Positions 25,144-56,624 of a DNA stretch of 64,000 bases are shown one piece after another. The stretch's first letter is position 1, and every line of letters starts with the position of its first letter. The DNA comes from Octopus vulgaris (taxonomy: Eukaryota), in the NCBI GenBank assembly GCA_951406725.2, contig OX597819.1:90706001-90770000 (forward strand), in the 5' to 3' direction. Position numbers and translations under genes: made by a program. The notes under the pieces were generated by a model. That model was not told where the DNA came from. It saw only the letters and a program-made list of their open reading frames with translations, and ran no database searches.

Positions 25144-25654
25144 CCCTAAATCCTCGAGTGTAATCTGCATTTTTTTCCCAAAATTTAAAGGTCAAAATCC
25201 CTAGTGCATACTATATACGAGGTTAAAAATGAAAAATATTTTCTAAGCAATGTCCGAGTCTCTATTTGCTGTCCAGCAATGTTTATTCAGACGCATTTTG
25301 TGATGTTGGGCATGAAAATACCTTAAGCTAATCCTGAAAGAAATGAAGTCATAAAAGAATCATCCATAATTTGCAGTATGCAACATTTATTAAAATAAAA
25401 GTATTCAGAACACAGAATAACATGTAACAAAAACAATTTGCAAACATATTTACATTCCCATATAACACTTAAGAACATCATCATTATTGTATTACGCATG
25501 TGCAGAAGCATTTGTTCGACTAGGTGCTGCAGGCTTAATTACGCACGACTCAAGTTAGAGAAGGGGTGCGTATTATACATAGGTTTAGGCTTTTCAGAGG
25601 TACATCCCTAAAAATTATTATGCTCAAGGGCAGACTATACTCGGGGATTTACGG
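25144..25654. mobile_element. ~510 bp pogo/Tc2-type MITE
   Basis: TIRs (ta)ccctaaatcctcgagtgta ... tatactcggggatttacgg(ta) with TA flanks. A second copy in opposite orientation lies at 35613-36125. Confidence 0.8.
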
Positions 25655-25655
25655 T

Positions 25656-27920
25656 ATATGTATAGAGTTGCTCCATCAAATGCTGAGGTAAAAAAGGCCA
25701 TAAAACAGCTCACTAATGGAAAGTCATCTGGGAATGATGGCATACCAGCTGAGATATATAAATGTGGTAGCAATCTCTGGCTGAACAAATTATGTGAACT
25801 CTTCTCCTTAATCTTGGAATCAGGATCAGTCCCAGGGGAGTTTAAAGATGGTTCTATTGTCCATCTTTATAAGTGCAAAGGTAACAAATGTGAATGCGAC
25901 AACCATACGAGTAGCTCCATTTTGTGTGTTGCTGGGAAGATCTTTGGAAGGGTTATCTTAAACAGACTCGATGATGCCCTTGCCAGCTTAGTGTTGCCTG
26001 AATCTCAATGTAGCTTTCAGGCTGGTAGAGGCACAGTGAATACGATTTTCAGCTTAAAGCAACTGCAGTAAAAGGATGGTGAGCACAATCGAAACCGTTT
26101 TGTCACTTTTGAGGATCTAACTAAAGCCTTTGGCAGCGAATCTAGTGATGTTCTCTGGGTTGTCCTTAGAAAGCTAGGTGTTCCCGAAAAGATGCTCAAT
26201 GTCTTCATTTCTTTCCATCAAGGGATGATGGCTTCTGTCAGATCTAGTGGAGAAGTGTCTGATTCATTCACAGTCTCAAAGGGAACAAAGTAAGGATGTG
26301 TTCTTGCACTGCTCTTATTTGCTTTGCATTTCTCCATCATTTTGGAAACAGCATTTGAAGGAGTTAAAGGAGTAAAGTTTTTGAACAGAATCAGTGGGGG
26401 CTTGTTCAACCAACAGCGCTTCAAAGCAAAAACTAAAACTTTGGTGCAAACAGTCTGAGATTTGCTCTGTGCATTTGGAGCACACACTCTTAAGGACATG
26501 CAATAGATTCTAAACAATTTGCATGCAGCGAAGGCTTTTGGTCTGACCATCAGCATCAACTTGTCCATTAGCCCTTTCATGACCATCCTCCTGCTGCTGC
26601 TCCTACCGTATATGTTGATGGGAAAGCATTAAAACTTGTTTTCTCCTCTATTTATCCTGGTTCCATTATGTCCAGTGATGCTAAAACGGATAAAGAAATT
26701 GACTCTAGAATCAGAAAGGCTAGCTCCACTTTCAGTAAGCTTTATGACAGGCTCTGGAACAGCCACGATATATTGTTGAAGGTGAAAGTTGATGTATATA
26801 AGACAGTGGTTTTGACATCATTGTTTTATGGTGCTGAATCTTGGATTCTGTACCAAAAGGACATCAACCAGCTTGGTGATTTACATATGTGATGCTTGCG
26901 TACTATCATCATCATCATCATTTAATGTCTGCTTTCCATGCTAGCATGGGTTGGATGATTTCATTGAGGACTGGCGAACCAGATGGCTGCATCAGGCTCC
27001 AATCTGATCTGGCAGAGTTTCTACAGCTGGATGCCCTTCCTAGTGCCAACCGCTCTGAAAGTGCAGTGGGTGCTTTTATGTGCCACTGGCACAAGGGCTA
27101 GTCTGGCGGTACTGTCAACGGCCACGCTCAGATGGTGTTTTTTACATGCCACCTGCACAGGAGTCAGTCCAGTGGCACTGGCAATGACCTCGCTTGAATG
27201 TTTTGTTCATGTGCCACCGGCACAAGTGCCAGTAAGGCGATGCTAGTAACAATTTCATAATCTCCAACATAAAACCAAGTTACTATATTTATAACAGTGA
27301 GGTACTAACAAAATGCAACATATCAGGTATTGAAGCCACCCTCAAAATACAGCTTAAATGGTCAGGTCATCTCTCACATATGAGTGATATCAAAATTCCA
27401 AAGCAACTTCTCTTTGGCCAATTTCTAACAGGAAAATCAGTTGGAAGGCCACTCTTGCACTTCAGAGCCAAGCTAAAAGTCAATCTGAAGCAATGCAATA
27501 TTCCCTTTTCTTCCTTGGAAAACAAAGCATCAGAACGCAGGACCTGGTACCACTCCTACTTCTCCTCAGTTTAAAGATTTGAGCAAAGTCAACTCAAATA
27601 TTGGGACCAACTTCGTGCAAGCATGAAGGCACACTGGCAAAATGCTGCTCCTCTAAATGGAAATCTTACCTGTCATTGTGGTTTTGTGGCATAAAGCAAA
27701 GCAGGCCTTACCATCCACTCAAGGAAACATGTAGTAAATGATCCACAAATACACAAACAAACAGAATCCTCAACTTGTTCCATTTGCCACAAGGTTTGCA
27801 AGGCACCAGCAGGACTCAGGAGAAACATTCATGTCCATAGATCAGGATTATTTCTTTATTTTACTGAATCTTCATTGATTGTTCACAACGAGATTCCTTA
27901 TTGTTCATAACGAGATTCCA
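25656..27920 (+). mobile_element. Degenerate RTE (BovB-like) LINE ORF2, interrupted by a SINE at 26905-27250
   Basis: KSSGNDGIPAEIYK, IVHLYKCKG, LPESQCSFQAGRGT, FEDLTKAF, GTK*GCVLA, EIDSRIRKASSTF, VYKTVVLTSLFYGAESW, QLKWSGHL, IPKQLLFG, and C-terminal CxC/CxxC...H zinc-finger remains. Many stops. Confidence 0.9.
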
Positions 27921-30561: not shown

Positions 30562-31671
30562 TTAAGTAACTAGAAAGTTTATTACTCTATTTAAAAAATT
30601 AACAACTTATAGGGGATAAGAGGTTAATAGGTAAAGGTATCAAAATAAGAAACAAAATAATAAGAAATTATAGAGAAAAGTAAGAAAATATATATAACTT
30701 ACATTTTAAAGAAACAGTATTAAAATTTGAGGTAGGGAGAGATAAAGATAACCCCACAGAAGAAGCAATAGGTATAGTAGTAGTGAGGGCAGTTGGAGGT
30801 ATTCAGACCGAAGGGGTATTTTATAAGTTATAAAGTTACTGGTGCTATTACATACATGATTTTATAGTTTCACAGGGGTATATAATTAGGAGGCTTACTT
30901 ACGTAAAAGCCATTACAAAATATATAATATGATTAGTAGGGTAGAACATCATAGAGAGGAATAAAGAGTTTAATTAACAAAAACATGATGAAGTTAGACT
31001 AATTAGGCAGAATTATTCATAGGATAGCAACTACGTGTACATATCATATACTATACCATATAGCTTATAATATATGTAATGTACTTTAATTCATCATACA
31101 ACTCAATATCCCATGATTTTATTATATATAATACTAGGGGTTAAGTTCACATCAGATATGACACTAAAAATTAATTTCTATCTAGGTTCAAGTATTGCAC
31201 CTATAAATGCTAATTTAGAAAATATTTAAATGTACAGGTGACTCTATGTATGCATGATACCTTTAGGTCTAATCTATTATTAATCAGGTTGCTCTTGTCC
31301 CTATACTTAAAAATCTCATAAGTTTCCATAGAGCACAGCTTGCACCTGTATCGACTATCTCTATAAGGCTGTGCTTTCCTATAATATCCCATTTAAGGCT
31401 AAATTCGATCCCACTTTCCTCCAGTTCCCAACTCTTGCTAGATAAGGACGTACAATTGGCCTTATGTTTGAGCCTAAAAGATGAAAAATGATTGTTAGTA
31501 CTGTAAAGTATAGAAGCCATCTTAACATGGCTAACCACGTAGGGGAGGGGGTGTTACTGTAGCTTTATAGCCCCAGGAGATCGTCGTCTCCAGCTGGCTT
31601 TAGACACCATTTCAGTGCCCTTGAAGTATTTGCAAAGGGAGGCCATCTCTTCCTCACAAGCCTGAGTGATA

Positions 31672-31714
31672 CGCTCGGACTAGTTTCGGGATTTTTGTCC
31701 CTTGTCAACGGGCG
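31672..31714 (-). ncRNA. Type I hammerhead ribozyme, U3-A8 core variant (left-arm copy)
   Basis: Reverse complement of the copy at 33100-33142. Confidence 0.72.
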
Positions 31715-32113
31715 GTAACCACCAGGTCGCGATGAAAGAGAAGGCTGCCTTGCAAATATATAAGAGTTTTTCTAGTGACGTCTGCCACTGATTTCGAAAA
31801 ACTGACAGTAAGCATTATTAAATCTCAGATTGTTAGTACGTTTTTCATATTTATTGAACATCCTACAGTTCTTAGAAGTGTAGTATATTCTTAGCTATAT
31901 TAGTGGCAACATGGACTGTTTCCCTATTCTTGGTCTATTAGAGCATTTGAGTAAAATTACATTAATGTGTCCAACTGATTAAAAAATTCTATTTATCTAT
32001 TTATGTAGCATTTAAATTGATGTAATGATTGCATTGTCCAATTAAATGGAGTCACTTGAAACGGTCATACTGCATCACCTCTTGATATCCTGTTGCTTAT
32101 TTAGATTATATAC

Positions 32114-32151
<38 letters not shown>

Positions 32152-32349
32152 TGTTTAACTGTTAATCCCTACACATTTTTTCTCTCTCCTTTTTTTTTAC
32201 CTCTCAATCCTTTCTGTTGAAGAGCATAGGCTTGAAACCTCAAAGACTTTCCATTCTTTCCAACCGTCAAACTAACACACCTGTCTTCATCTTTTGATTT
32301 CTGTAAATTTGAACTATATATATATCTGGATATCCTGTTGCTTATTTTG

Positions 32350-32412
<63 letters not shown>

Positions 32413-32645
32413 TATACATATGTATATAAGCTATATATATATAATCAAAATAAGCAACAGGATATCCAGATATATATATATAGTTCAAATTTACAGAAAT
32501 CAAAAGATGAAGACAGGTGTGTTAGTTTGATGGTTGGAAAGAATGGAAAGTCTTTGAGGTTTCAAGCCTATGCTCTTCAACAGAAAGGATTGAGAGGTAA
32601 AAAAAAAGAAGAGAAAAAAAATGTGTAGGGATTAACAGTTGAACA

Positions 32646-32691
<46 letters not shown>

Positions 32692-33099
32692 TATACATAT
32701 GTATATAATCTAAATAAGCAACAGGATATCAAGAGGTGATGCAGTATGACCATTTCAAGTGACTCCATTTAATTGGACAATGCAATCATTACATCAATTT
32801 AAATGCTACATAAATAGATAAATAGAATTTTTTAATCAGTTGGACACATTAATGTAATTTTACTCAAATGCTCTAATAGACCAAGAATAGGGAAAAAGTC
32901 CATGTTGCCACTAATATAGCTAAGAATATACTACACTTCTAAGAACTGTAGGATGTTCAATAAATATGAAAAACGTACTAACAATCTGAGATTTAATAAT
33001 GCTTACTGTCAGTTTTTCGAAATCAGTGGCAGACGTCACTAGAAAAACTCTTATATATTTGCAAGGCGGCCTTCTCTTTCATCGCGACCTGGTGGTTAC

Positions 33100-33142
33100 C
33101 GCCCGTTGACAAGGGACAAAAATCCCGAAACTAGTCCGAGCG
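33100..33142 (+). ncRNA. Type I hammerhead ribozyme, U3-A8 core variant
   Basis: CGCCCG-TTGACAA-GGGA caaaaa TCCC-GAA-AC ta GT-C-CGAGCG: stem I 5/6 bp, stem II 4 bp, short palindromic stem III, GUC triplet (predicted cut after 33136). Confidence 0.75.
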
Positions 33143-33382
33143 TATCACTCAGGCTTGCGAGGAAGGGATGGCCTCCCTTTGCAAATACTTCAAGGGCACT
33201 GAAATGGTGCCTAAAGCCAGCTGGAGACGACGATCTCCTGGGGCTATAAAGCTACAGTAACACCCCCTCCCCTACGTGGTTAGCCATGTTAAGATGGCTT
33301 CTATACTTTACAGTACTAACAATCGTTTTTCATCTTTTAGGCTCAAACATAAGGCCAATTGTACGTCCTTATCTAGCAAGAG

Positions 33383-35450
33383 GTGGCCTGAGCTTACAAA
33401 AGGCTAAATACTGCACATTTTCTTCTATGAACACATTGATAAAATCACTGGAAAAATTGGCGATGAGCTTCTCAGTTTCTACTCTTATCTTTGCATCAAC
33501 TTAACTACATAAGTTCAGTATAGCTTTGAACTTACCATGCACTGATTGATAGGCTGTCCTGTGTTTTTGTAAGCTGACAAACAACTGATCTAAAATGATA
33601 TTGAAAGTCCCACATCTGAATTTTTCTCTTGCAGAAAGTGAAACTTCCTCTGAGGTTGATGCTAGATTTGCATCACATTTGATTCTCTTCCTTTGTCTAT
33701 GTGTCATTGATTTAAAGTCTGCGTTTGCGTTTCTTCACATGTTCCTCTTATCCAGTTCCAACCCTTCATACTTATCCTCGTGATTTCAGAAAGTTTTCCA
33801 AGGAATCAATTAGATACACCACTTTATTCAGATCAACTTCAAGTCTTTGAAAAACTTTAATTTTAATTAATTAAATTTAACTAATTTAATTAAACTTTAA
33901 TTAATGTTAAACTGTACAAGAATTAAGTTCTAGATCTTAGCCATTAAAGCAGTTTCATGACAGTCCAATTTGTCTGCCTGTGTCTGAGCTTCATATCTTG
34001 CTTCAGGTGTTTGTTCTAAATTGTCTTCAATATCTTTGAGTGCATTTTGAATTAAGTTATATCTATCAACAAGGGCTTCAATAGTATATGCTCTTGCTGA
34101 TCGACGAGTTTCTGAAAAGGACTTTAAGGTTAGCTTTCTTTATTTCCTTCCCCCAAAATTCAATAAATTTGCCCATCTGTGTGTCAACACACAAAAAATG
34201 TATATATATTTTGAATGGAACCAAAATATCTAACAGGTTCAACACAGTAAGGACCAGCAGTGTGTCCAGCAAGCAAGATTCAACAAATGAGGTGCACAGA
34301 ATGAAAATTGTAGTCAAGTTCATTTCCTTAAACCTGGCTTGCATTTCTGTGTAGTGATCTGGCACTACCATAGAATTGTCTCTGCAGTCTTCAAAATTTA
34401 TATTCTACTTTTAAAGAAATTCTAACTCAGATGTGGATAGTATTTCCACTTTATGAGAACCAGTTGACAGGAAAGTTAAAAACCTTTTCCAGAAATACTA
34501 AAATGCACAAAAACTGTTGGCTGATCAACATGAGCACAGTTTAGATTTAAATCTACAGAAGATGACAAATACTTGGCAGATTTACATTTTGTTACAATAT
34601 GAGTCATATATTTTGCATTCAACAGAACTGTATGACTGCTTACCACTTTTGGGATTGTCAAATACATTCTAGTGATTCATTGGAAATGGGTCAAATTGTG
34701 TAATAAAGATCCATAATTCACCCAAATTCTCATCATACTTAGATCCAATGATCTTTTCATAACCCCTAAGTGCCAGGCCTCTCTAAGCTAGAAATATTGT
34801 TACAGCTACAACATAATATTTCATTCAACTATTTTTTGTTTTCCTGCACTTGTTTTTCCAACTCTCTACTAACATGAGAACATCTCTTACATAAAATATT
34901 AAACAACAACACAAAATCTCTGTGGCATTGTTCATGTGCTTTCATTTTCATCTCTACTATTTGTTCAATCATTAAAGCCATCCTTGATGGAAAACCTGTC
35001 ATAGTGGCTTGACATCAAAGTACAGAAAAGGCAATAAACTGCATTCTTTGATGAGCTGTACAAGATCCACCTTTTCAAATGCTGCTTACCATTGTCACAA
35101 AGAATATAATACATTGAAGTTTGGCCCACCCAGTTTGCCTTCCCATTTTTTATAATGGGGTCAAGATTCTGGGTTCTAAAAGAACATTGATGCATACTTT
35201 TCTCTGGAAAAAACTACATGGCTTTGTTGAAATACCAAGCTGCAATTTGCTATCCATAGTGATTCTTCATCTCCAATCCAATTTTTTGCAGATGCACTTG
35301 AGAATGCAGCTATTTTCCCAAAAGTGACACCTGTTACTGATTCTTCATTAGCTTTTAAGTTTTCCTTTTTCCTAAAGAAAGAAAAATTGGGCAAGGAGTT
35401 GTGTCTTTGCCAATACAGTAACATTTTTTCACTTCTGACTTTGGAAATTT
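33383..35450 (-). mobile_element. Degenerate hAT transposase (ZMYM1-like, TTF-type zinc finger)
   Basis: Fragments RWILYSSSKNAVYCLFC..GFND, AKYLSSSVD..HVDQ, MQARFKEMN, REKFRCGTFNIILDQLFVSLQKH in the order expected for a hAT transposase. Many frameshifts. The left side abuts the PLE palindrome. Confidence 0.78.
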
Positions 35451-38281: not shown

Positions 38282-41200
38282 CAGTGGTTCTCAAACTGGG
38301 GGTCTGTGAAGCAATTTTAAGGGGACCACGAAGGGACGCTAAATTATTGTGAAAACTAAGTGGCATGAGACAGTTAAGTTAAAAAATTCCAAGACTTCCA
38401 ATTTTTGTCGTTGACTTCAAAAATCCATGCTACTCCTACACACTCATTTGCTAATTACATTTGTACAACAAGTGTGATTGGCTGAAGGAAAATATGTGGG
38501 TATAACGGTTGATCGTGCATATGCTGTCACTATTCTACGTTCACATGATTCACCACTCCACTACTGCAATCCACATGTTTGCATGTCTCATTGTCATTAT
38601 CCTCACCGGTGCATGTTCCTGCATAACTTTGCCCTTTGCCAGACAACCATTCTCATCCTGCATGTTGGCTGGGGTTTGTAAATCATGTCTGGTTTTCATG
38701 GCAACGTGTTCTGACGGAACTGTCTTCTCAACGGTTATCAATTCACGGAGGTTTATCTACGAAAAAACAACGTTCACATACACTTTGGTTTTCTTCCTAA
38801 GCTAACAGTGAGAGGTAAGCTTTATTGCTAATTAGTACACCCAAAAGCTGACTACAATAAAGCATATATGCACACCCGTAGTATATGATAAATGCGAAAG
38901 AAGTATACAATGTAGTTATATTAAATTGGTTTTATCTCTTTTTACAATGCTTCTCCCCCTCCCCCACCAAAAAGAAGTAAAAGAAAATGAGATATGACCA
39001 ATCTTATTTGAAATTTGATTTTACTGTGATAAAGTCTGATGGAGAAGAGAAACCATAGTGTGTTTTGTGTTCCAACGTTTTGGCGTCTACTTCATTAAAG
39101 CCCAGCAATTTAAAGAAGCACTTTGAAACGAACTATCCCAGTTCAATAAATAGAGATGTCGACTTCTTCAGACGCGAAGCCGACATCTCTATTGGCAAAA
39201 TCCAGACTTAATAACACAGGGATGTCTTCGCTGGACATTACGGCTAGTTTGAAAGTGTTCTACGAGGTTTCAAGGAAAATAGCTATTGCTGAAAGCCCCA
39301 CAATATCAGCGAAAAGCTGATATTGCCTTGCTGCAAAGATATTATATCGAATGTGTTGGGAAGTTCTGAACTTCGGAAGCTGATGCAAGCCTCTTTCTCA
39401 AACGATACAGTTAGCAGGCGAATACTATTAGCTGTCTGATAACATTTTGTTGCAGGTGGTCTCAAAGATTCACAATTTGCTTTTTAACTTTTTCGCGATC
39501 CAGCTTGATGAAATGATGGATGTTGTCATCTTAGCCTAACTTTGCGTCTCTGTGTGTTGTACATAATAATCGCCTGGAAGACGAATTCTGGTTTTGCGAA
39601 ACCCTAAGTACCAAAACAACTGCAAGTGAAATATTTGATAAAGTGGACAAATCTGTTGAGACCCATGATATTGTAGGGGCAGTTACCTCCCCTGACGGTG
39701 GCTGCTTAATGAGTTAAACAACAGAGGGCATTACGCAACATTAAGGTTCAGAGACTCGGCTCATCCTCTTTTCTCGCCAAGACGTCGGACTGTAAAGACG
39801 TAACCAAATTGTCTCTCTCATGACACGAGGCAATGCACAGGAGAACATCATGGCCTCCACGCATCAAGCCATTTTCATTTATCATCCAGCTTGTGTATAC
39901 AGACATGTACCACATTCTAGGATTTTAGTTGCTTTCTCATGCTAGCACTTCCAACACTTAACCCAGCTGTTCAAGTGCCTACATTCCTACGATGTGAAGA
40001 TCAACCCGGCTAAGTGTGTATTCGGTTCTACCAGCTTGGAATTCTTGAGGCATCTCATTGGTGCCGACGGTATTCGTCTGCTTCCCTTTAAGGTGGAAGC
40101 CATCAAACGCTTGTCTCCTGCTCAGAAATTTTATTGGTTTAATTAATTATTATCGTCGCATCATTCCTAACTGTGCGGAGAAGTCGCTCCTCTTTACCCA
40201 GCTCTTGAAAGATCAACGGGGGAAAAAAAAAGACTCCCAGATAACGCTGTCTATTACAGCCATTCAAGCTTTTGAATCTGTCAAAACTGACCTTACTCAA
40301 GCATCCTTCCTCGTTCATCCTGTTGCGGATGCAAAATCATCACTTACTTTTGATGCGTCATCATCAGCTGTTACCGCAGTTTTAGAGCAATCTGTCAACA
40401 GCTGAAGCCAGCTGTTAGCTTTCTGCTCTCGCCTACTGAAAAATGCTGAATAGAGATACAGTGTGTTTGGTAAAGAACTCTTAGCAATTTACCTGGCGGT
40501 GAAGCATTTCTCTTATCTTCTTGAAGGTAGAGATTTCACTATTATAACCGACCACAAACCGCTAACGCTCGCTCTCTTTGCCAAAATGGACCAGTATTCG
40601 CCCAGGTAAACAAGACATTTGGACTACATATCACAGTTCACTTGTGACGTGTGCCACATCGCTGGCACTGACAAGATCCCTGCCGACGCCTTATCTCGCC
40701 TGCCTATCGGTGCATTGTCGTCTCCTGCTTCGATTGATTTGGTTGCTATGGCTACTGGCCAACCCTCCTTGGACTCTCTGGACGTCTCTTCACCACAGTT
40801 TCCCTGCTGCAAGTTTGACCACCTGCCTCTGCCTTTTTCCGAAGAAACTATTCTCTGCGATGTTTCTACTGGGTCACCACGACCCCTCATTCCTGAATGT
40901 CACCGTTGTACTGTTTTTGAAGTCCTGCACCCACTGTCACACCCTGGCATTGCGGCCACAGTAAAGCTTATCGCGGCCCGCTATTTCTGGCCGAATATGC
41001 GTCGGTCTATTACTGCTTAGTCACGTGCCTGTATTCCATGTCAGCGTTCCAAGGTGCATCGGCACCTGAGAGCACCTCTTGGACACTTCCAGCCACTGGA
41101 CACCAGGTTCCGTCACATACACAGCGACCTGGTTGGTCCTTGGCCGGTCAGTTGTGGATTTTACTTATATATTGACCTGTATATATATGACCTGAAGCCA

Positions 41201-45281: not shown

Positions 45282-45552
45282 CATACATATATATATATAT
45301 ACATATATATATATATCATCATCATCATCATTTAACATCCGTTTTCCGCGCTAGCACGGGTTGGACGGTTTCGACCGGGGTCTGGGGAGCTCGGGACTGC
45401 CCCAGGCTCCAGTCTAGTCTGGCAGTGTTTCTACAGCTGGATGCCCTTCCTAACGCCAACCACTCCGCGAGTGTAGTGGGTGTTTTTTACATGCCACCTG
45501 CACAGGTGCCAGACGGGTCTGGCATCGGCCACGTTCGGATGGTGCTTTTTAT

Positions 45553-46024
45553 GGGGGGGGGTGCAGAAATATAGGGGAGCACCAGTGGGAGGGGTGGTTC
45601 AGAGGACAGGTACTAGGCAAGTAGAACGTAGGATATCGAGAGAGGGGTAATGCATGGTGAAATAGCGTATTGAAGAGGGGGCTTCAAAGAGTAGACACCT
45701 ATAATGGTGGTGGGGGGTGCAGAAATATAGGGGAGCACCAGTGGGAGGGGTGGTTCAGAGGACAGGTTCTAGGCAAGTAGAACGTAGGATATCGAGAGAG
45801 GGGTAATGCATGGTGAAATAGCGTATTGAAGAGGGGGATTCAAAGAGTAGACACCTATAATGGTGGTGGGGGGTGCAGAAATATAGGGGAGCACCAGTGG
45901 GAGGGGTGGTTCAGAGGACAGGTTCTAGGCAAGTAGAACGTAGGATATCGAGAGGGGGGTAATGCATGGTGAAATAGCGTATTGAAGAGGGGGGTTCAAA
46001 GTGTAGACACCTATAATGGTGGTG
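45553..46024. repeat. GC/purine-rich tandem repeat, 156-bp unit x3
   Basis: cagaaatataggggagcacc recurs at 45564, 45720 and 45876. Units are nearly identical. Confidence 0.93.
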
Positions 46025-47382
46025 GGAGAAACGACATCCGGTATAGTTGGAGCAAAATAGAGATATCCGGTATTGGTGGTGGGGGTGGGTAGGGCGGGCG
46101 CGCCGCGAAGAATCGGCAGCCAATTTCTATCAGCCCTGTAAGGGAGATAGATCTTAAATATCTATAACGATAACTAGTGAATTATACAGAATATGCAAAA
46201 ACGAGGCGAGGCTGAAATAGTAAACAGAGTGGCGACTAGGGGGATCAGAATAATAATAATTAATAAATAATAATAATAAATAGAAATACGGGATGAATTA
46301 AAGTTCAAGGATTTCTTATCTTGGGATCACTTCGTTTACGGACAGTCTTGGCAAAAGGAATTCGGAATCAAGAATGAGGCAGGTTACTAGCTTAAGTATG
46401 CATAGCCATGGCGAGGAGTAGGAAGAGAGGAGTCCAGACAGACAATGTAAAAAGAGGGGGAGAGAAGGGCGCGAAGAATCGGCAGCCAATTTCTATCATA
46501 TATATATATGTATTATATGCATATGAATTTGACATGGGCGATTCTTTCTTGTCTTGGGACTCACGGTCAAACAGCTGGGTGGAATTGCGCGAAAAATTAC
46601 ACAGATGTATAGACTGATCTGATGGTGATGCTGGGCTTTGTATGTTTTTCATAGCTCCCAAGGTTGCTGAGATAATCTACTATAATAATACTCTTGTGTT
46701 TATGAATGAGAAGGGAAGGGGTGATAGATGAATAAGGAAGGAAGGGTTTGATGTCATACTTTTTTCATAGGTCCAATGCTTACCGAAATAATCTACTATA
46801 ATAATACTCTTGTGTTTATGAATGAGAAAGGAAGGGGTGGTGTCATACTTGGTAGTGGGATTATGAAAATTGTATGCTGAAAAAATAAATCAAGCAGCGT
46901 TTCAACTCTGTGTGAATATATGTGCATGTATGTAAAAGTTGGGTATGCGAATGTGTGTGTGTGTGTGAGTGTGTTTGTGCGCGTGCGCACAATGGAAGTG
47001 GGATGGTTCATGTTTGTTCGCTTAGTATTTGGGTTTATTTTTTTTGATTTGGTTGAATCTTGGTTGGTTTATTTTTTTTGTTGGTCAGTTATTTTTTAGC
47101 GTTTTGACAGAAATAAGTCGTTCTAAAATTGTTTTTTAACATAAGCATGCCCAAACAAGTTGAATGCTTACACAGAGCAGGTTTTACAACCACATCATCC
47201 AAACTGACGGGTGAGACCGGGCTTAGCTGTTAGTATATATATATATATATAAGGTCAATATATAATTTAACTCCTGGTCACCAAAACGAAAAAAAAAAAA
47301 GAGTCTAATATGTATAAAAAATTGTCTTGGAAACGAATATGAAAACAAAAGTTTGCACAAATGAATGGCTAATAGGTGATGA

Positions 47383-48052: not shown

Positions 48053-48469
48053 TCTTGGTAATTATTTGACGGCAACGATCCAAGAGAGGAGGATATAACT
48101 TGACTGCCTATATGAAGATCTTGTGTAACAGACCTTCTTCATGTTAAGAAGTTATAAATATCTTGCAAGATATTGTTGCAGATATTTTGATTGAATTTCA
48201 GGCTTTTGAGTTGATTCTTTTATGTCTCTCCAAAGTTTTTCAATATTTTGTGTGTGTATGTTTCTATGTGCGCTATCTTCAAAATTGTTAGAGTGAAGTA
48301 TTACACACCCAGCAGAGCATACTAGCCGTGTTCCTCTCTAATCTTTGCATGTCCTCTGCATTCAGAACTCATGTGTCCTAATTGGATATAGATTCCACAG
48401 TGGCTTCATAAATGATGGTCTTGGACATGCAAGCTCCATTTAAATAACCTGTACACCTGCCACCAGTTC

Positions 48470-48700
48470 AATAATAAAGAAGAGGAAACATAGGAATAGG
48501 AAGACTATCTGGTTCACACACCGCTATTCCCTCGAAGTGACCTTCAATATAGGCAGGTATTTCTTGGCACTGATAGATAGACATTTTCCAGTCAACCATA
48601 GTTACAGAAAGCTCTTCAATAGGCATAACTTAAAAATCAGTTTCAGCTCAACTACTAATTTTAAAAATATAATCGCACACAACATACAAAAACCACAATA
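48470..48700 (+). mobile_element. Penelope-like ORF fragment (post-RT linker)
   Basis: RNRKTIWFT/PYSLEVTFNIGRYFLALIDRHFP..HSYRKLFNRHNLKISFS..NFKNII, characteristic of the PLE type seen at 31.2-31.5 kb. Confidence 0.78.
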
Positions 48701-48842
48701 TGAAACCAGCTGTTCAGACCACACAGCCACTCTTACCCCTTTCTACAAGAATGCTGGGTGTCGAGTTTCTAGAGACGATCTGGAGAATTATCATAGCACC
48801 TGCTGAGTCTGAGTAATTTCAATAATTAAATATTATTTAGAT

Positions 48843-50419: not shown

Positions 50420-51000
50420 ACTGATAAAGCACCAGCAATTTCCTTGTGTGTTGTTCCATGATGAATTTTATTGAGGTATGACATCATCAATACTGCAAAA
50501 AGATACCTCCCAATTCTTCAACAATCATCAAGAATGAACAAATTAATAACAGGTTCAAAAATATTTTATAGCCGATGTCAAGCACTGAACCTAAAAAAGC
50601 TTTTAACCAAAGCAAGATTTACAACTAGAGAAACAATAAAGAGAGTTAAAAAATGTGGTGACCCTCAATGTGGAACGTGTGATTACATTGAAGGAGAACA
50701 AATTACTTTCAAAGACAACTACACTTTTAAAATAAATGCAAATATGAATTGCAAGTCTGGAAGCCTAATCTGCCACCTGTCCTGAATGCAAAGAATACTA
50801 CATTGGTGATGCAGGCATTGGACCATATGAGAGAGTAAGGGTACATAAACAACAAATCTATGATCCCTCTATTAGAAACACAACATGCAGTGCGCACTTT
50901 GAAAAATATGGGAAAAGAGAATTCAAATATTCCCTTTCTTCAACATTTTCATAAGGAAGAATTCTTTATTCAAAAATACAACTGAAACTGAACAGAAAAT
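50420..51000 (+). mobile_element. Penelope-like GIY-YIG endonuclease fragment (second PLE type)
   Basis: NLKKLLTKARF..KKCGDPQCGTCDYI...INANMNCKS..LI / CPECKEYYIG...RVRVHKQQI: Cys-rich linker followed by the YIG motif. Confidence 0.8.
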
Positions 51001-55937: not shown

Positions 55938-55939
<2 letters not shown>

Positions 55940-56533
55940 CAATAATAATTCTCTAAATGAGATATAGACAGTAACTGCTCCATAACATAAGGGACTAAAG
56001 CCATCTGAATATGGCTAGGGATAGGGCAGGGTGGTGGGGGTGTTACTGTTGCATTTAGCCCCAGGCGAACATCAACGTCGCCAGATAGGCTTGACACCAT
56101 CACAGCGTCCTCTATCCTGCAAAGGGAGATAATTCCCCGATGAAGCGGAAACCACACACGGACCTAGGTTTCAAGGTGTTTGCCTATTATCAACGTATGG
56201 TAGGCACCGCTTCCTCGACGAACAACTCACTCTGCAGGATATTTATATATAGATTTTCAAGCAAAATACATTTGCTGATTTCGAAAATCTGTTCGACAGC
56301 AATAATAATTCTCTAAATGAGATATAGACAGTAACTGCTCCATAACATAAGGGACTAAAGCCATCTGAATATGGCTAGGGACAGGGCAGGGTGGTGGGGG
56401 TGTTACTGTTGCATTTAGCCCCAGGCGAACATCAACGTCGCCAGATAGGCTTGACACCTAAATGCAACAGTAACACCCCCACCACCCTGCCCTGTCCCTA
56501 GCTATATTCAGATGGCTTTAGTCCCTTATGTTA
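55938..56533 (-). mobile_element. Non-coding hammerhead-bearing retroelement (retrozyme/PLE-like): 360-bp unit, partial tandem copy and inverted 75-bp segment
   Basis: 55938-56098 repeats at 56298-56458 (period 360). 56458-56533 is the reverse complement of ~56342-56418. Flanked by TA microsatellite. Hammerhead at 56152-56200. Confidence 0.8.
56152..56200 (-). ncRNA. Type I hammerhead ribozyme, U3-A8 core variant (second family)
   Basis: Minus strand: CATACG-TTGATAA-t AGG caaaca CCT t-GAA-ACC ta GGT-C-CGTGTG; palindromic stem III ACCTAGGT and GUC triplet. Confidence 0.7.
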
Positions 56534-56624
56534 TATATATATATGTCTTTCAATGTATATATATAAATATGTCTTTTTTTTATATTTATCAACCTTATTT
56601 TATTGTATTTTAATTTATTTCTAT

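Follow-up and report, generated by a model that had tools for sequence, protein, structure and literature searches.

Animal genomes carry non-LTR retrozymes, which are non-coding tandem repeats with a type I hammerhead ribozyme in each unit and a GC content under 50%, arranged as dimers to multimers (PMC7229834, in the portions available). The mussel units measure 350–390 nt and form strongly self-paired predicted circles, and both circular RNA and cleavage have been shown for these repeats (available portions of PMC7229834). Penelope-like elements (PLEs) are named there only as a strong candidate mobiliser, and the mobilising enzyme of animal retrozymes and its recognition target are presented as an open question in the accessible text (PMC7229834; bioRxiv 2026.07.22.740005). 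In vertebrates, such repeats have been proposed to be non-autonomous derivatives of PLE terminal repeats, and of 57 Xenopus families, 24 have matches among known elements, nearly all of them PLEs; the available text of that study does not analyse RNA structure or start sites (bioRxiv 10.64898/2026.07.22.740005).

Among autonomous PLEs, the Poseidon element of Anolis encodes a protein that, when purified, nicks and extends both strands of AT-rich targets. Its reverse transcriptase (RT) has two internal starts that define the genomic tail, requires the RNA around these starts, and showed no strand bias between them in vitro (PMC11167929, available sections). Both sites lie inside the open reading frame (ORF), in an AC-rich stem-loop with a hammerhead upstream, and bracket a tail of 30–40 nt (same sections of PMC11167929). 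PLE insertions carry the tail on one end, often one only, and in inverted pLTR insertions a 5′-truncated inverted copy lies beside the main copy in TA microsatellite targets (PMC3846280, PMC8557442, as far as their accessible text goes). PLE terminal repeats contain minimal hammerheads with a type I fold and a short palindromic helix III (PMC4209133, accessible part).

Here, we describe tandem-repeat families of Octopus vulgaris that share features with all of these systems. They are like the animal retrozymes in lacking coding capacity, in hammerhead type, GC content and copy form, and like the mussel units in length and predicted self-pairing, but they also have a conserved domain outside the hammerhead and fixed insertion ends, neither of which is described in the available portions of PMC7229834. 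Whereas circular RNA and cleavage were demonstrated in that study, the octopus families are known from sequence and predicted folds, and their hammerhead cores include U3-A8 and U4C variants, unlike those of the earlier retrozymes. As in vertebrates, the repeats are candidate non-autonomous PLE derivatives; in octopus, the link rests on insertion anatomy rather than on matches to known elements. With Poseidon they share two putative internal starts bracketing a tail, AT-rich targets, probable extension of both strands and the upstream hammerhead; they differ in having a non-coding unit, a longer tail and a domain of five to seven helices kept across many families. The retrozyme class and the tail signature were already known. 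The literature searched, with Repbase, Dfam and several supplements outside its scope, contained no description of this fold, of such octopus repeats or of mapped retrozyme start sites.

Retrozyme families in the window and the genome

The window, a 64,000-nt stretch of contig OX597819.1 (forward-strand positions 90,706,001 to 90,770,000), contains two elements, A on the plus strand and B on the minus strand, in which an initial annotation had recognised seven parts in a fixed order. All seven were located in that order in both elements. In element A, part 1 (33014–33026), as read from the sequence, is followed by a hairpin, H0 (33025–33040), the two together occupying 33014–33040; the arms of H0 vary among families with their complementarity kept. 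A TATA-like run (33052–33059), a putative promoter element, lies at the foot of a long irregular stem predicted by folding (33056–33187; arms 33056–33064 and 33179–33187). Within this stem is a minimal type I hammerhead with a U3-A8 core (33106–33112), a palindromic helix III and a 3′ core (33127–33136), for which a cut is predicted after 33136. The stem is followed by hairpin P4 (part 4, 33195–33211), hairpin P5 (part 5, 33215–33245), in which outer and inner stems flank a conserved internal loop, part 6 (33254–33267), which holds the 5′ arm of a long-range helix, P6 (33254–33261), and hairpin P7 (part 7, 33282–33299).

Element B has the same order on the minus strand, starting with part 1 (56287–56275, likewise read from the sequence) and H0 (56276–56260), together 56260–56287, and the TATA run (56251–56243). 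Its long stem (56114–56240; arms 56240–56232 and 56122–56114) contains a U3-A8 type I hammerhead, the cores of which were read by eye (56193–56187 and 56172–56161; predicted cut after 56161). Next come P4 (56109–56093), P5 (56091–56057), part 6 (56049–56036, with the P6 5′ arm at 56049–56042) and P7 (56016–55999). The cassette extends about 60–75 nt past part 7 into a tail, which in B (55938–55998) includes the P6 3′ arm (55975–55968) and a hairpin, P8 (55962–55950), with one insertion end-site at about 55982 (site 1) and another at 55938 (site 2). The A copy in the window is truncated and lacks this tail, and with it the usual partner of the P6 5′ arm. Since A and B match by BLAST within the window (E = 1.6e-9), and since the genome contains 2826 exact matches to the joint pattern of parts 5 and 6, compared to 0 for a reversed control, the cassette is real and not a product of chance.

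The initial annotation took the two elements to be dissimilar outside the cassette; the full A and B units are in fact colinear and 72% identical over 329 columns. By their sequence features, A and B are units of two abundant non-coding tandem-repeat families of about 360 nt with a type I hammerhead, i.e., non-LTR retrozymes, an already described class that the annotation had missed. The repeats are dispersed and tandem, within the 150–450 nt range of the class, and form arrays on many contigs; each unit has a type I hammerhead, with cores kept among the copies of six families; and they have neither protein-coding capacity nor LTR structure. No long ORF belonging to A or B was found. Searching the 2.8-Gb genome gave 2262 first-look candidates for family A and 1431 for family B, with the best copies 92–99% identical and unit lengths of 357 nt (A) and 361–362 nt (B). 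There are at least ten related families in the genome. Families C, E, G and I have 2724, 1713, 1184 and 434 first-look candidates genome-wide, respectively, while D, F/K, H, J and M are represented by one to four copies each; all these further families were met by chance in profile searches of locus flanks. A full unit is known for A, B, C, E, G and I, and in each of these six families it is 357–366 nt long. This length is kept although the families differ greatly in age and sequence: copies diverge by 17–21% in G and I and by about 3% in B, C and E. The copies range from single units and partial tandems to long arrays, and some are palindromic, with an inverted arm truncated at its 5′ end; most lie in TA runs.

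The hammerhead of A matched the Rfam HH9 model at 33088–33158 (E = 1.4e-6, below the gathering score); that of B had no Rfam match and was identified by eye from its core. Like the PLE terminal-repeat hammerheads, as described in the accessible part of PMC4209133, the octopus ribozymes have a type I fold and a short palindromic helix III, with the U3-A8 core swap in families A, B and C. In contrast to them, helix I is lengthened to form a rod, about 60 bp in each arm, and helix III of family G has 4 bp. The core of family E has the U4C change, which may weaken its hammerhead.

The A insertion in the window (32987–33312, plus strand, 326 nt) is one 5′-truncated unit of the 357-nt repeat that ends at site 1. 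It is bordered by a 12-nt direct repeat (32975–32986 and 33313–33324), probably a target-site duplication. An intron had been considered from a GT in part 6 and a branch-point-like motif at 33314–33320; the motif belongs to this flanking direct repeat, part 6 is explained by pairing, and the intron was dropped. A mirror copy of the A insertion (31502–31827, minus strand) lies within a 99% identical inverted duplication (31428–32325 and 32472–33386), which takes in flanking non-element DNA too. This near-perfect 0.9-kb inverted duplication (31428–33386 overall) surrounds a nested palindrome (32260–32537) and could be a fold-back rearrangement or an assembly artefact. The B insertion has a direct arm (55938–56458, minus strand) of 1.44 units of the 361-nt repeat, which ends at site 2 (55938), and an inverted 77-nt arm (56458–56534, plus strand), which ends at site 1; a TA run lies next to each end.

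Other features of the window are a Hydra-like PLE remnant (48444–48803), a broken remnant of a Neptune-like PLE endonuclease region (50471–50918), and, at 11–646, 25589–26071, 40610–41020 and 45552–46026, remnants that look LINE-like but do not match Pfam, an integrase zinc-binding fragment (PF17921) and three tandem copies of a 156-nt repeat. An Rfam scan of the whole window returned only simple-repeat microRNA noise.

Elsewhere, a U6 copy and a SINE-like repeat are inserted in a family I retrozyme near site 1 (L360:1400-2070), with element sequence duplicated on both sides. Five of the 20 U6 matches found form a tandem cluster with a common upstream octamer and TATA (G000:C1:139423726-139428422); the other 15 lack that upstream region, look retroposed and are often followed by a SINE-like repeat. 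Words of family B are present in sequencing runs under five organism codes, and close relatives therefore probably share this family. Assembled contigs from four sequencing runs, none recorded as RNA, contained no joints or ends. A pattern scan of metagenomes gave 118 stretches, none of which matched the profile at E < 0.5, and these are therefore taken as chance matches.

Predicted RNA domain outside the hammerhead

Parts 4–7 had been proposed to be a structured RNA motif of no known family. The predicted fold supports this proposal, and an Rfam scan gave no match for these parts at E ≤ 10. In the folding models, parts 4–7 are the front half of a larger RNA domain. Reading tandem RNA from the hammerhead cut, the order is one rod arm, P4, P5, the 5′ arm of P6, P7, a single-stranded stretch, the 3′ arm of P6 and P8, followed by a linker ending in part 1, then H0 and the TA run, and finally the second rod arm, which runs into the next hammerhead. 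Part 1 flanks H0, whose sequence varies, and in tandem RNA it belongs to the 3′ side of the domain. From P7 onward, the positions of the helices relative to the cut are nearly constant in the six families.

Two details of the earlier description required revision. Part 6 had been called invariant, which holds between A and B but not across families, where it is one arm of the long-range helix formed with the downstream tail. Part 7 had been described as a start-codon hairpin, but its ATG is not conserved and is replaced by GTG or TTG in other families.

Circular folds of the majority sequences of the six families had z-scores of −4.8 to −9.9 (25 shuffles each), with mean pair probabilities of 0.53–1.0 for P4, P5, P7, P8 and H0. 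For P6, the mean pair probability reached 0.90–1.0 in B, E, G and I; in A it was 0.29, with a second partner in competition; in family C, the helix is present in the minimum-energy fold. RNAalifold recovered only P7 from a sequence-only alignment. The near-invariant unpaired bases are in the P5 internal loop, whose letters are 88–97% conserved, at the A after P5, at two U's in loop 7 and in the UUA immediately preceding site 1. P4 and P5 contain many G-U pairs. A resemblance of parts 4–7 to twister or pistol ribozymes was considered and dropped, as Rfam gave no match.

The initial annotation had called for significant covariation in a large alignment, and this was obtained, to a modest degree, for P4 and P5. 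In a sequence-only alignment of 20 real copies, 82% of the cells at helix positions were paired and 18 of 32 pairs were changed on both sides, compared to 35–50% pairing with slid partners and a level that 0 of 500 shuffles reached. An alignment of 141 matches fitted to the covariance model was 86% paired, against 37–56% for slid partners. Because these simple controls ignore relatedness or lean toward structure, we wrote a G-test with a parsimony null that is similar to, but is not, R-scape. Applied to an 18-row sequence-only alignment in which several helices were visibly out of register, the tree-aware test found no significant helix pair. Applied to the best 78 of the 141 structure-fitted rows (the other 63, weaker and mostly truncated, being excluded), it found 2 of 32 pairs at E < 0.05, one in P4 (E = 0.007) and one in inner P5 (E = 7e-5), and 8 of 32 at p ≤ 0.025. 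Two pairs of outer P5 had p of about 0.01, and three P6 pairs with p of 0.002–0.005 are suggestive. P7 and P8 are conserved, with little covariation in P7 and no significant pair in either among the 78 rows. Covariation in the domain thus appears real but modest, reaching significance for P4 and P5 in the structure-fitted rows.

Insertion ends and the template

The 3′ ends of the insertions are fixed. For 206 of 226 segments from families A, B, C, E and G, the 3′ end fell in two intervals that make up 13% of the unit, compared to 39 of 226 for 5′ ends. The intervals, +8 to +28 and +50 to +76 nt after P7, were set after viewing A and B; the ends of C, E, G and I fall in the same two places. A TA run follows the 3′ end in 143 of 226 segments, in a genome that is itself TA-rich. 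In the predicted fold, site 1 is a single-stranded loop inside P6, just 3′ of P7, and site 2 is 3′ of P8, before H0. The site 1 peak is 171–182 nt after the hammerhead cut in all six families, or about half a unit, which on a circle would be almost exactly opposite the hammerhead junction.

Palindromic insertions use the two sites together. Among 77 palindromes from six families, 12 had at least one end elsewhere and 65 had both ends at a site. In 61 of the 65, there was one end at each site (50% expected under independence, p = 2e-14), while the remaining 4 had both ends at the same site. Insertions without an inverted arm end at either site, and arrays run through both. Partial tandems accompanied by an inverted 5′-truncated copy, as in these 77 palindromes and the B copy of the window, AT-rich or (TA)n targets, and two 3′ ends with a tail between them that is present on one end were thus all found, the tail being about 45–60 nt rather than 30–40 nt. 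By analogy with described PLE insertions, this anatomy is the Penelope “tail” signature, and we read it as a direct genomic signature of Penelope-type mobilisation. The inverted insertions in the accessible text of PMC3846280 and PMC8557442 have the same 5′-truncated inverted copy, one-ended tail and TA microsatellite targets, but were described qualitatively and for autonomous PLEs; here, they are counted, come from non-coding units and are mapped onto a predicted fold.

Approximately 216 of 283 segments cross the hammerhead cut site, 7 stop within 3 nt of the cut and 130 exceed one unit. Departures from the family majority are shared 2–13 times more often within a locus than between loci. 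The read-through of the cut, the segments longer than a unit and the variants shared within loci together point to a circle or an uncut multimer as the template, rather than to a linear monomer released by cutting.

Candidate roles of the domain

Recognition or priming by the PLE reverse transcriptase was one of three roles offered in the initial annotation, and it is the one favoured by the insertion ends. We consider it fairly likely that the domain, comprising P4–P7, the tail and part 1, serves as the recognition and internal-start signal for a Penelope-like RT-endonuclease, with one start per target strand. The array would be transcribed, and either the hammerhead would excise monomers that are ligated into circles, or uncut multimers would serve as the template. 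An RT-endonuclease borrowed from an autonomous PLE would bind the domain and nick both strands of TA-rich DNA, one target strand would be extended from site 1 and the other from site 2, and the two cDNAs would join at their truncated 5′ ends, producing tandem and palindromic insertions. The assignment of one site to each strand goes beyond the in vitro study, since no strand bias was observed there (PMC11167929, available sections).

A bolder and more tentative form of the proposal, which we find somewhat doubtful, is that the domain works as a portable landing pad on which a dimeric, telomerase-related Penelope enzyme sits, each nicked strand being primed from its own template site. A long-lived lineage of RNA circles of about 360 nt would then have kept fold and length at 55–70% identity, with no need for homology to an autonomous element. 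If so, retrozyme mobilisation would have its first defined cis signal in this domain, and the families would be a natural structure–function series for PLE template recognition. The conserved domain gives the in vitro assay already available for PLEs a defined target that can be mutated, and at least ten diverged families in one genome make a covariation series for an RNA that would be bound by a telomerase-related RT. Strand-specific double priming, if it holds, would explain the palindromic insertions of PLEs and point to a compact RNA tag that could be used in PLE-based gene insertion.

The main rival is that only site 1 is an RT start, and that site 2 arises when the GIY-YIG endonuclease cuts cDNA or a DNA hairpin (P8/H0) to resolve a fold-back intermediate, so that part of the structure acts as DNA. 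Such resolution would explain one end at each site equally well, and it agrees with the earlier ascription of the tail to endonuclease-mediated resolution (PMC8557442, accessible text), with a report that the tail is needed for endonuclease recognition (as cited in the available sections of PMC11167929) and with the conservation of P8 in the absence of significant covariation. We nevertheless think it unlikely: with purified protein both tail ends are RT starts (PMC11167929, same sections), insertions lacking an inverted arm end at either site, and the G-U pairs of P4 and P5 favour RNA for those helices. A different possibility, compatible with the start signal, is that each unit is transcribed from an internal promoter formed by part 1 and the TATA run, and that the helices mainly stabilise the circular RNA. 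The 23–25 nt spacing between the two is kept in A and B, a TA run is in the same place in five of six families, and TATA-type promoters occur in PLE terminal repeats (PMC3846280, accessible text), including the Neptune-like repeat described below. However, the TATA run is missing from family C and is predicted to be paired within the folds of E, G and I, and part 1 is itself variable and directly adjoins H0. The five U6 genes with a common upstream region have an octamer and TATA but no part-1 motif, and none was found upstream of any of the 20 U6 matches. As the run is missing in one of six families and part 1 is unlike the U6 promoter, the promoter is unproven; it would also leave the two fixed ends unexplained, and we find it somewhat doubtful. 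Part 1 cannot be a general Pol III B-box either, as the B-box consensus does not fit it in families C, E, G and I.

The other two roles offered in the initial annotation fared less well. In favour of parts 4–7 being a second self-cleaving ribozyme, whose cuts would make the RNA 3′ ends at sites 1 and 2, are the fixed ends and the compact folding of several helices, with an internal loop that is conserved and a handful of unpaired bases that hardly vary. However, no ribozyme family other than hammerhead matches at E ≤ 10, parts 4–7 have no covariance-model match among known small ribozymes (twister, HDV, pistol, hatchet and others), and arrays run through both sites. Moreover, cut RNAs would provide one end per template, and the two arms should then share a site or combine randomly; only 4 of 65 palindromes share one, and the predominance of one end at each site fits poorly with cut RNA. 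A second ribozyme is therefore very improbable. At least as improbable, and in our judgement hardly credible, is the translational role, in which part 7 would conceal a start codon and the cassette would regulate the translation of a peptide or of an ORF once belonging to a PLE. In A and B, part 1 and the ATG share a reading frame with no indel, and because some PLE terminal repeats and tails include the first ORF codons (PMC3846280, PMC11167929, accessible text of both), it may be a relic. Yet families D, E, F, G, H, I and J have G or T as the first base of this codon, and there are in-frame stops in family A. A–B differences, counted by eye, are as frequent at second as at third codon positions, Pfam gave no match for the 35-aa B peptide, and PLE coding sequence is attached to none of the families.

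Against the favoured start signal, no autonomous element bearing the domain was found among the loci sampled. Matches to the RNA model were confined to retrozyme copies, both in the window and in 79 loci at or beside GIY-YIG matches, and a scan of one full period of a young Hydra-like family revealed no domain. Nor was PLE coding sequence joined to any retrozyme family in tblastn searches of sampled loci with PLE proteins, or a domain-bearing partner found by a search of the GIY-YIG family and its flanks and by further PLE protein searches in which one locus was examined. The retrozymes had no flank match in the Neptune-like and Hydra-like elements sampled, which are part of the PLE families of the genome; since only part was sampled, the partner may lie among the others, or recognition may need no homology.

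The genome does contain young PLEs. (The clade names are presumptive and draw on motifs quoted in PMC8557442.) A two-ORF Neptune-like family has many intact 781-aa RT-endonuclease frames with an overlapping upstream ORF (G000:C16:20835800-20840300 and others). The terminal repeat of this family combines repeated CCAAT- and CRE-like boxes with a TATA, and a U3-A8 hammerhead lies about 70 nt upstream of its 3′ end. A very abundant Hydra-like family (G000:C1:57214650-57217350; 9819 first-look candidates) has 717-aa frames in tandems of about 2590 nt and a hammerhead-like motif whose helix II is long and whose core has the U4C change also seen in retrozyme family E. The hammerhead-like motifs of both PLEs were read by eye, and the domain is present in neither of them. 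An old, decayed GIY-YIG family of another clade (G000:C27:12961075-12961401) accounts for a further 5664 first-look candidates, most of which have stops.
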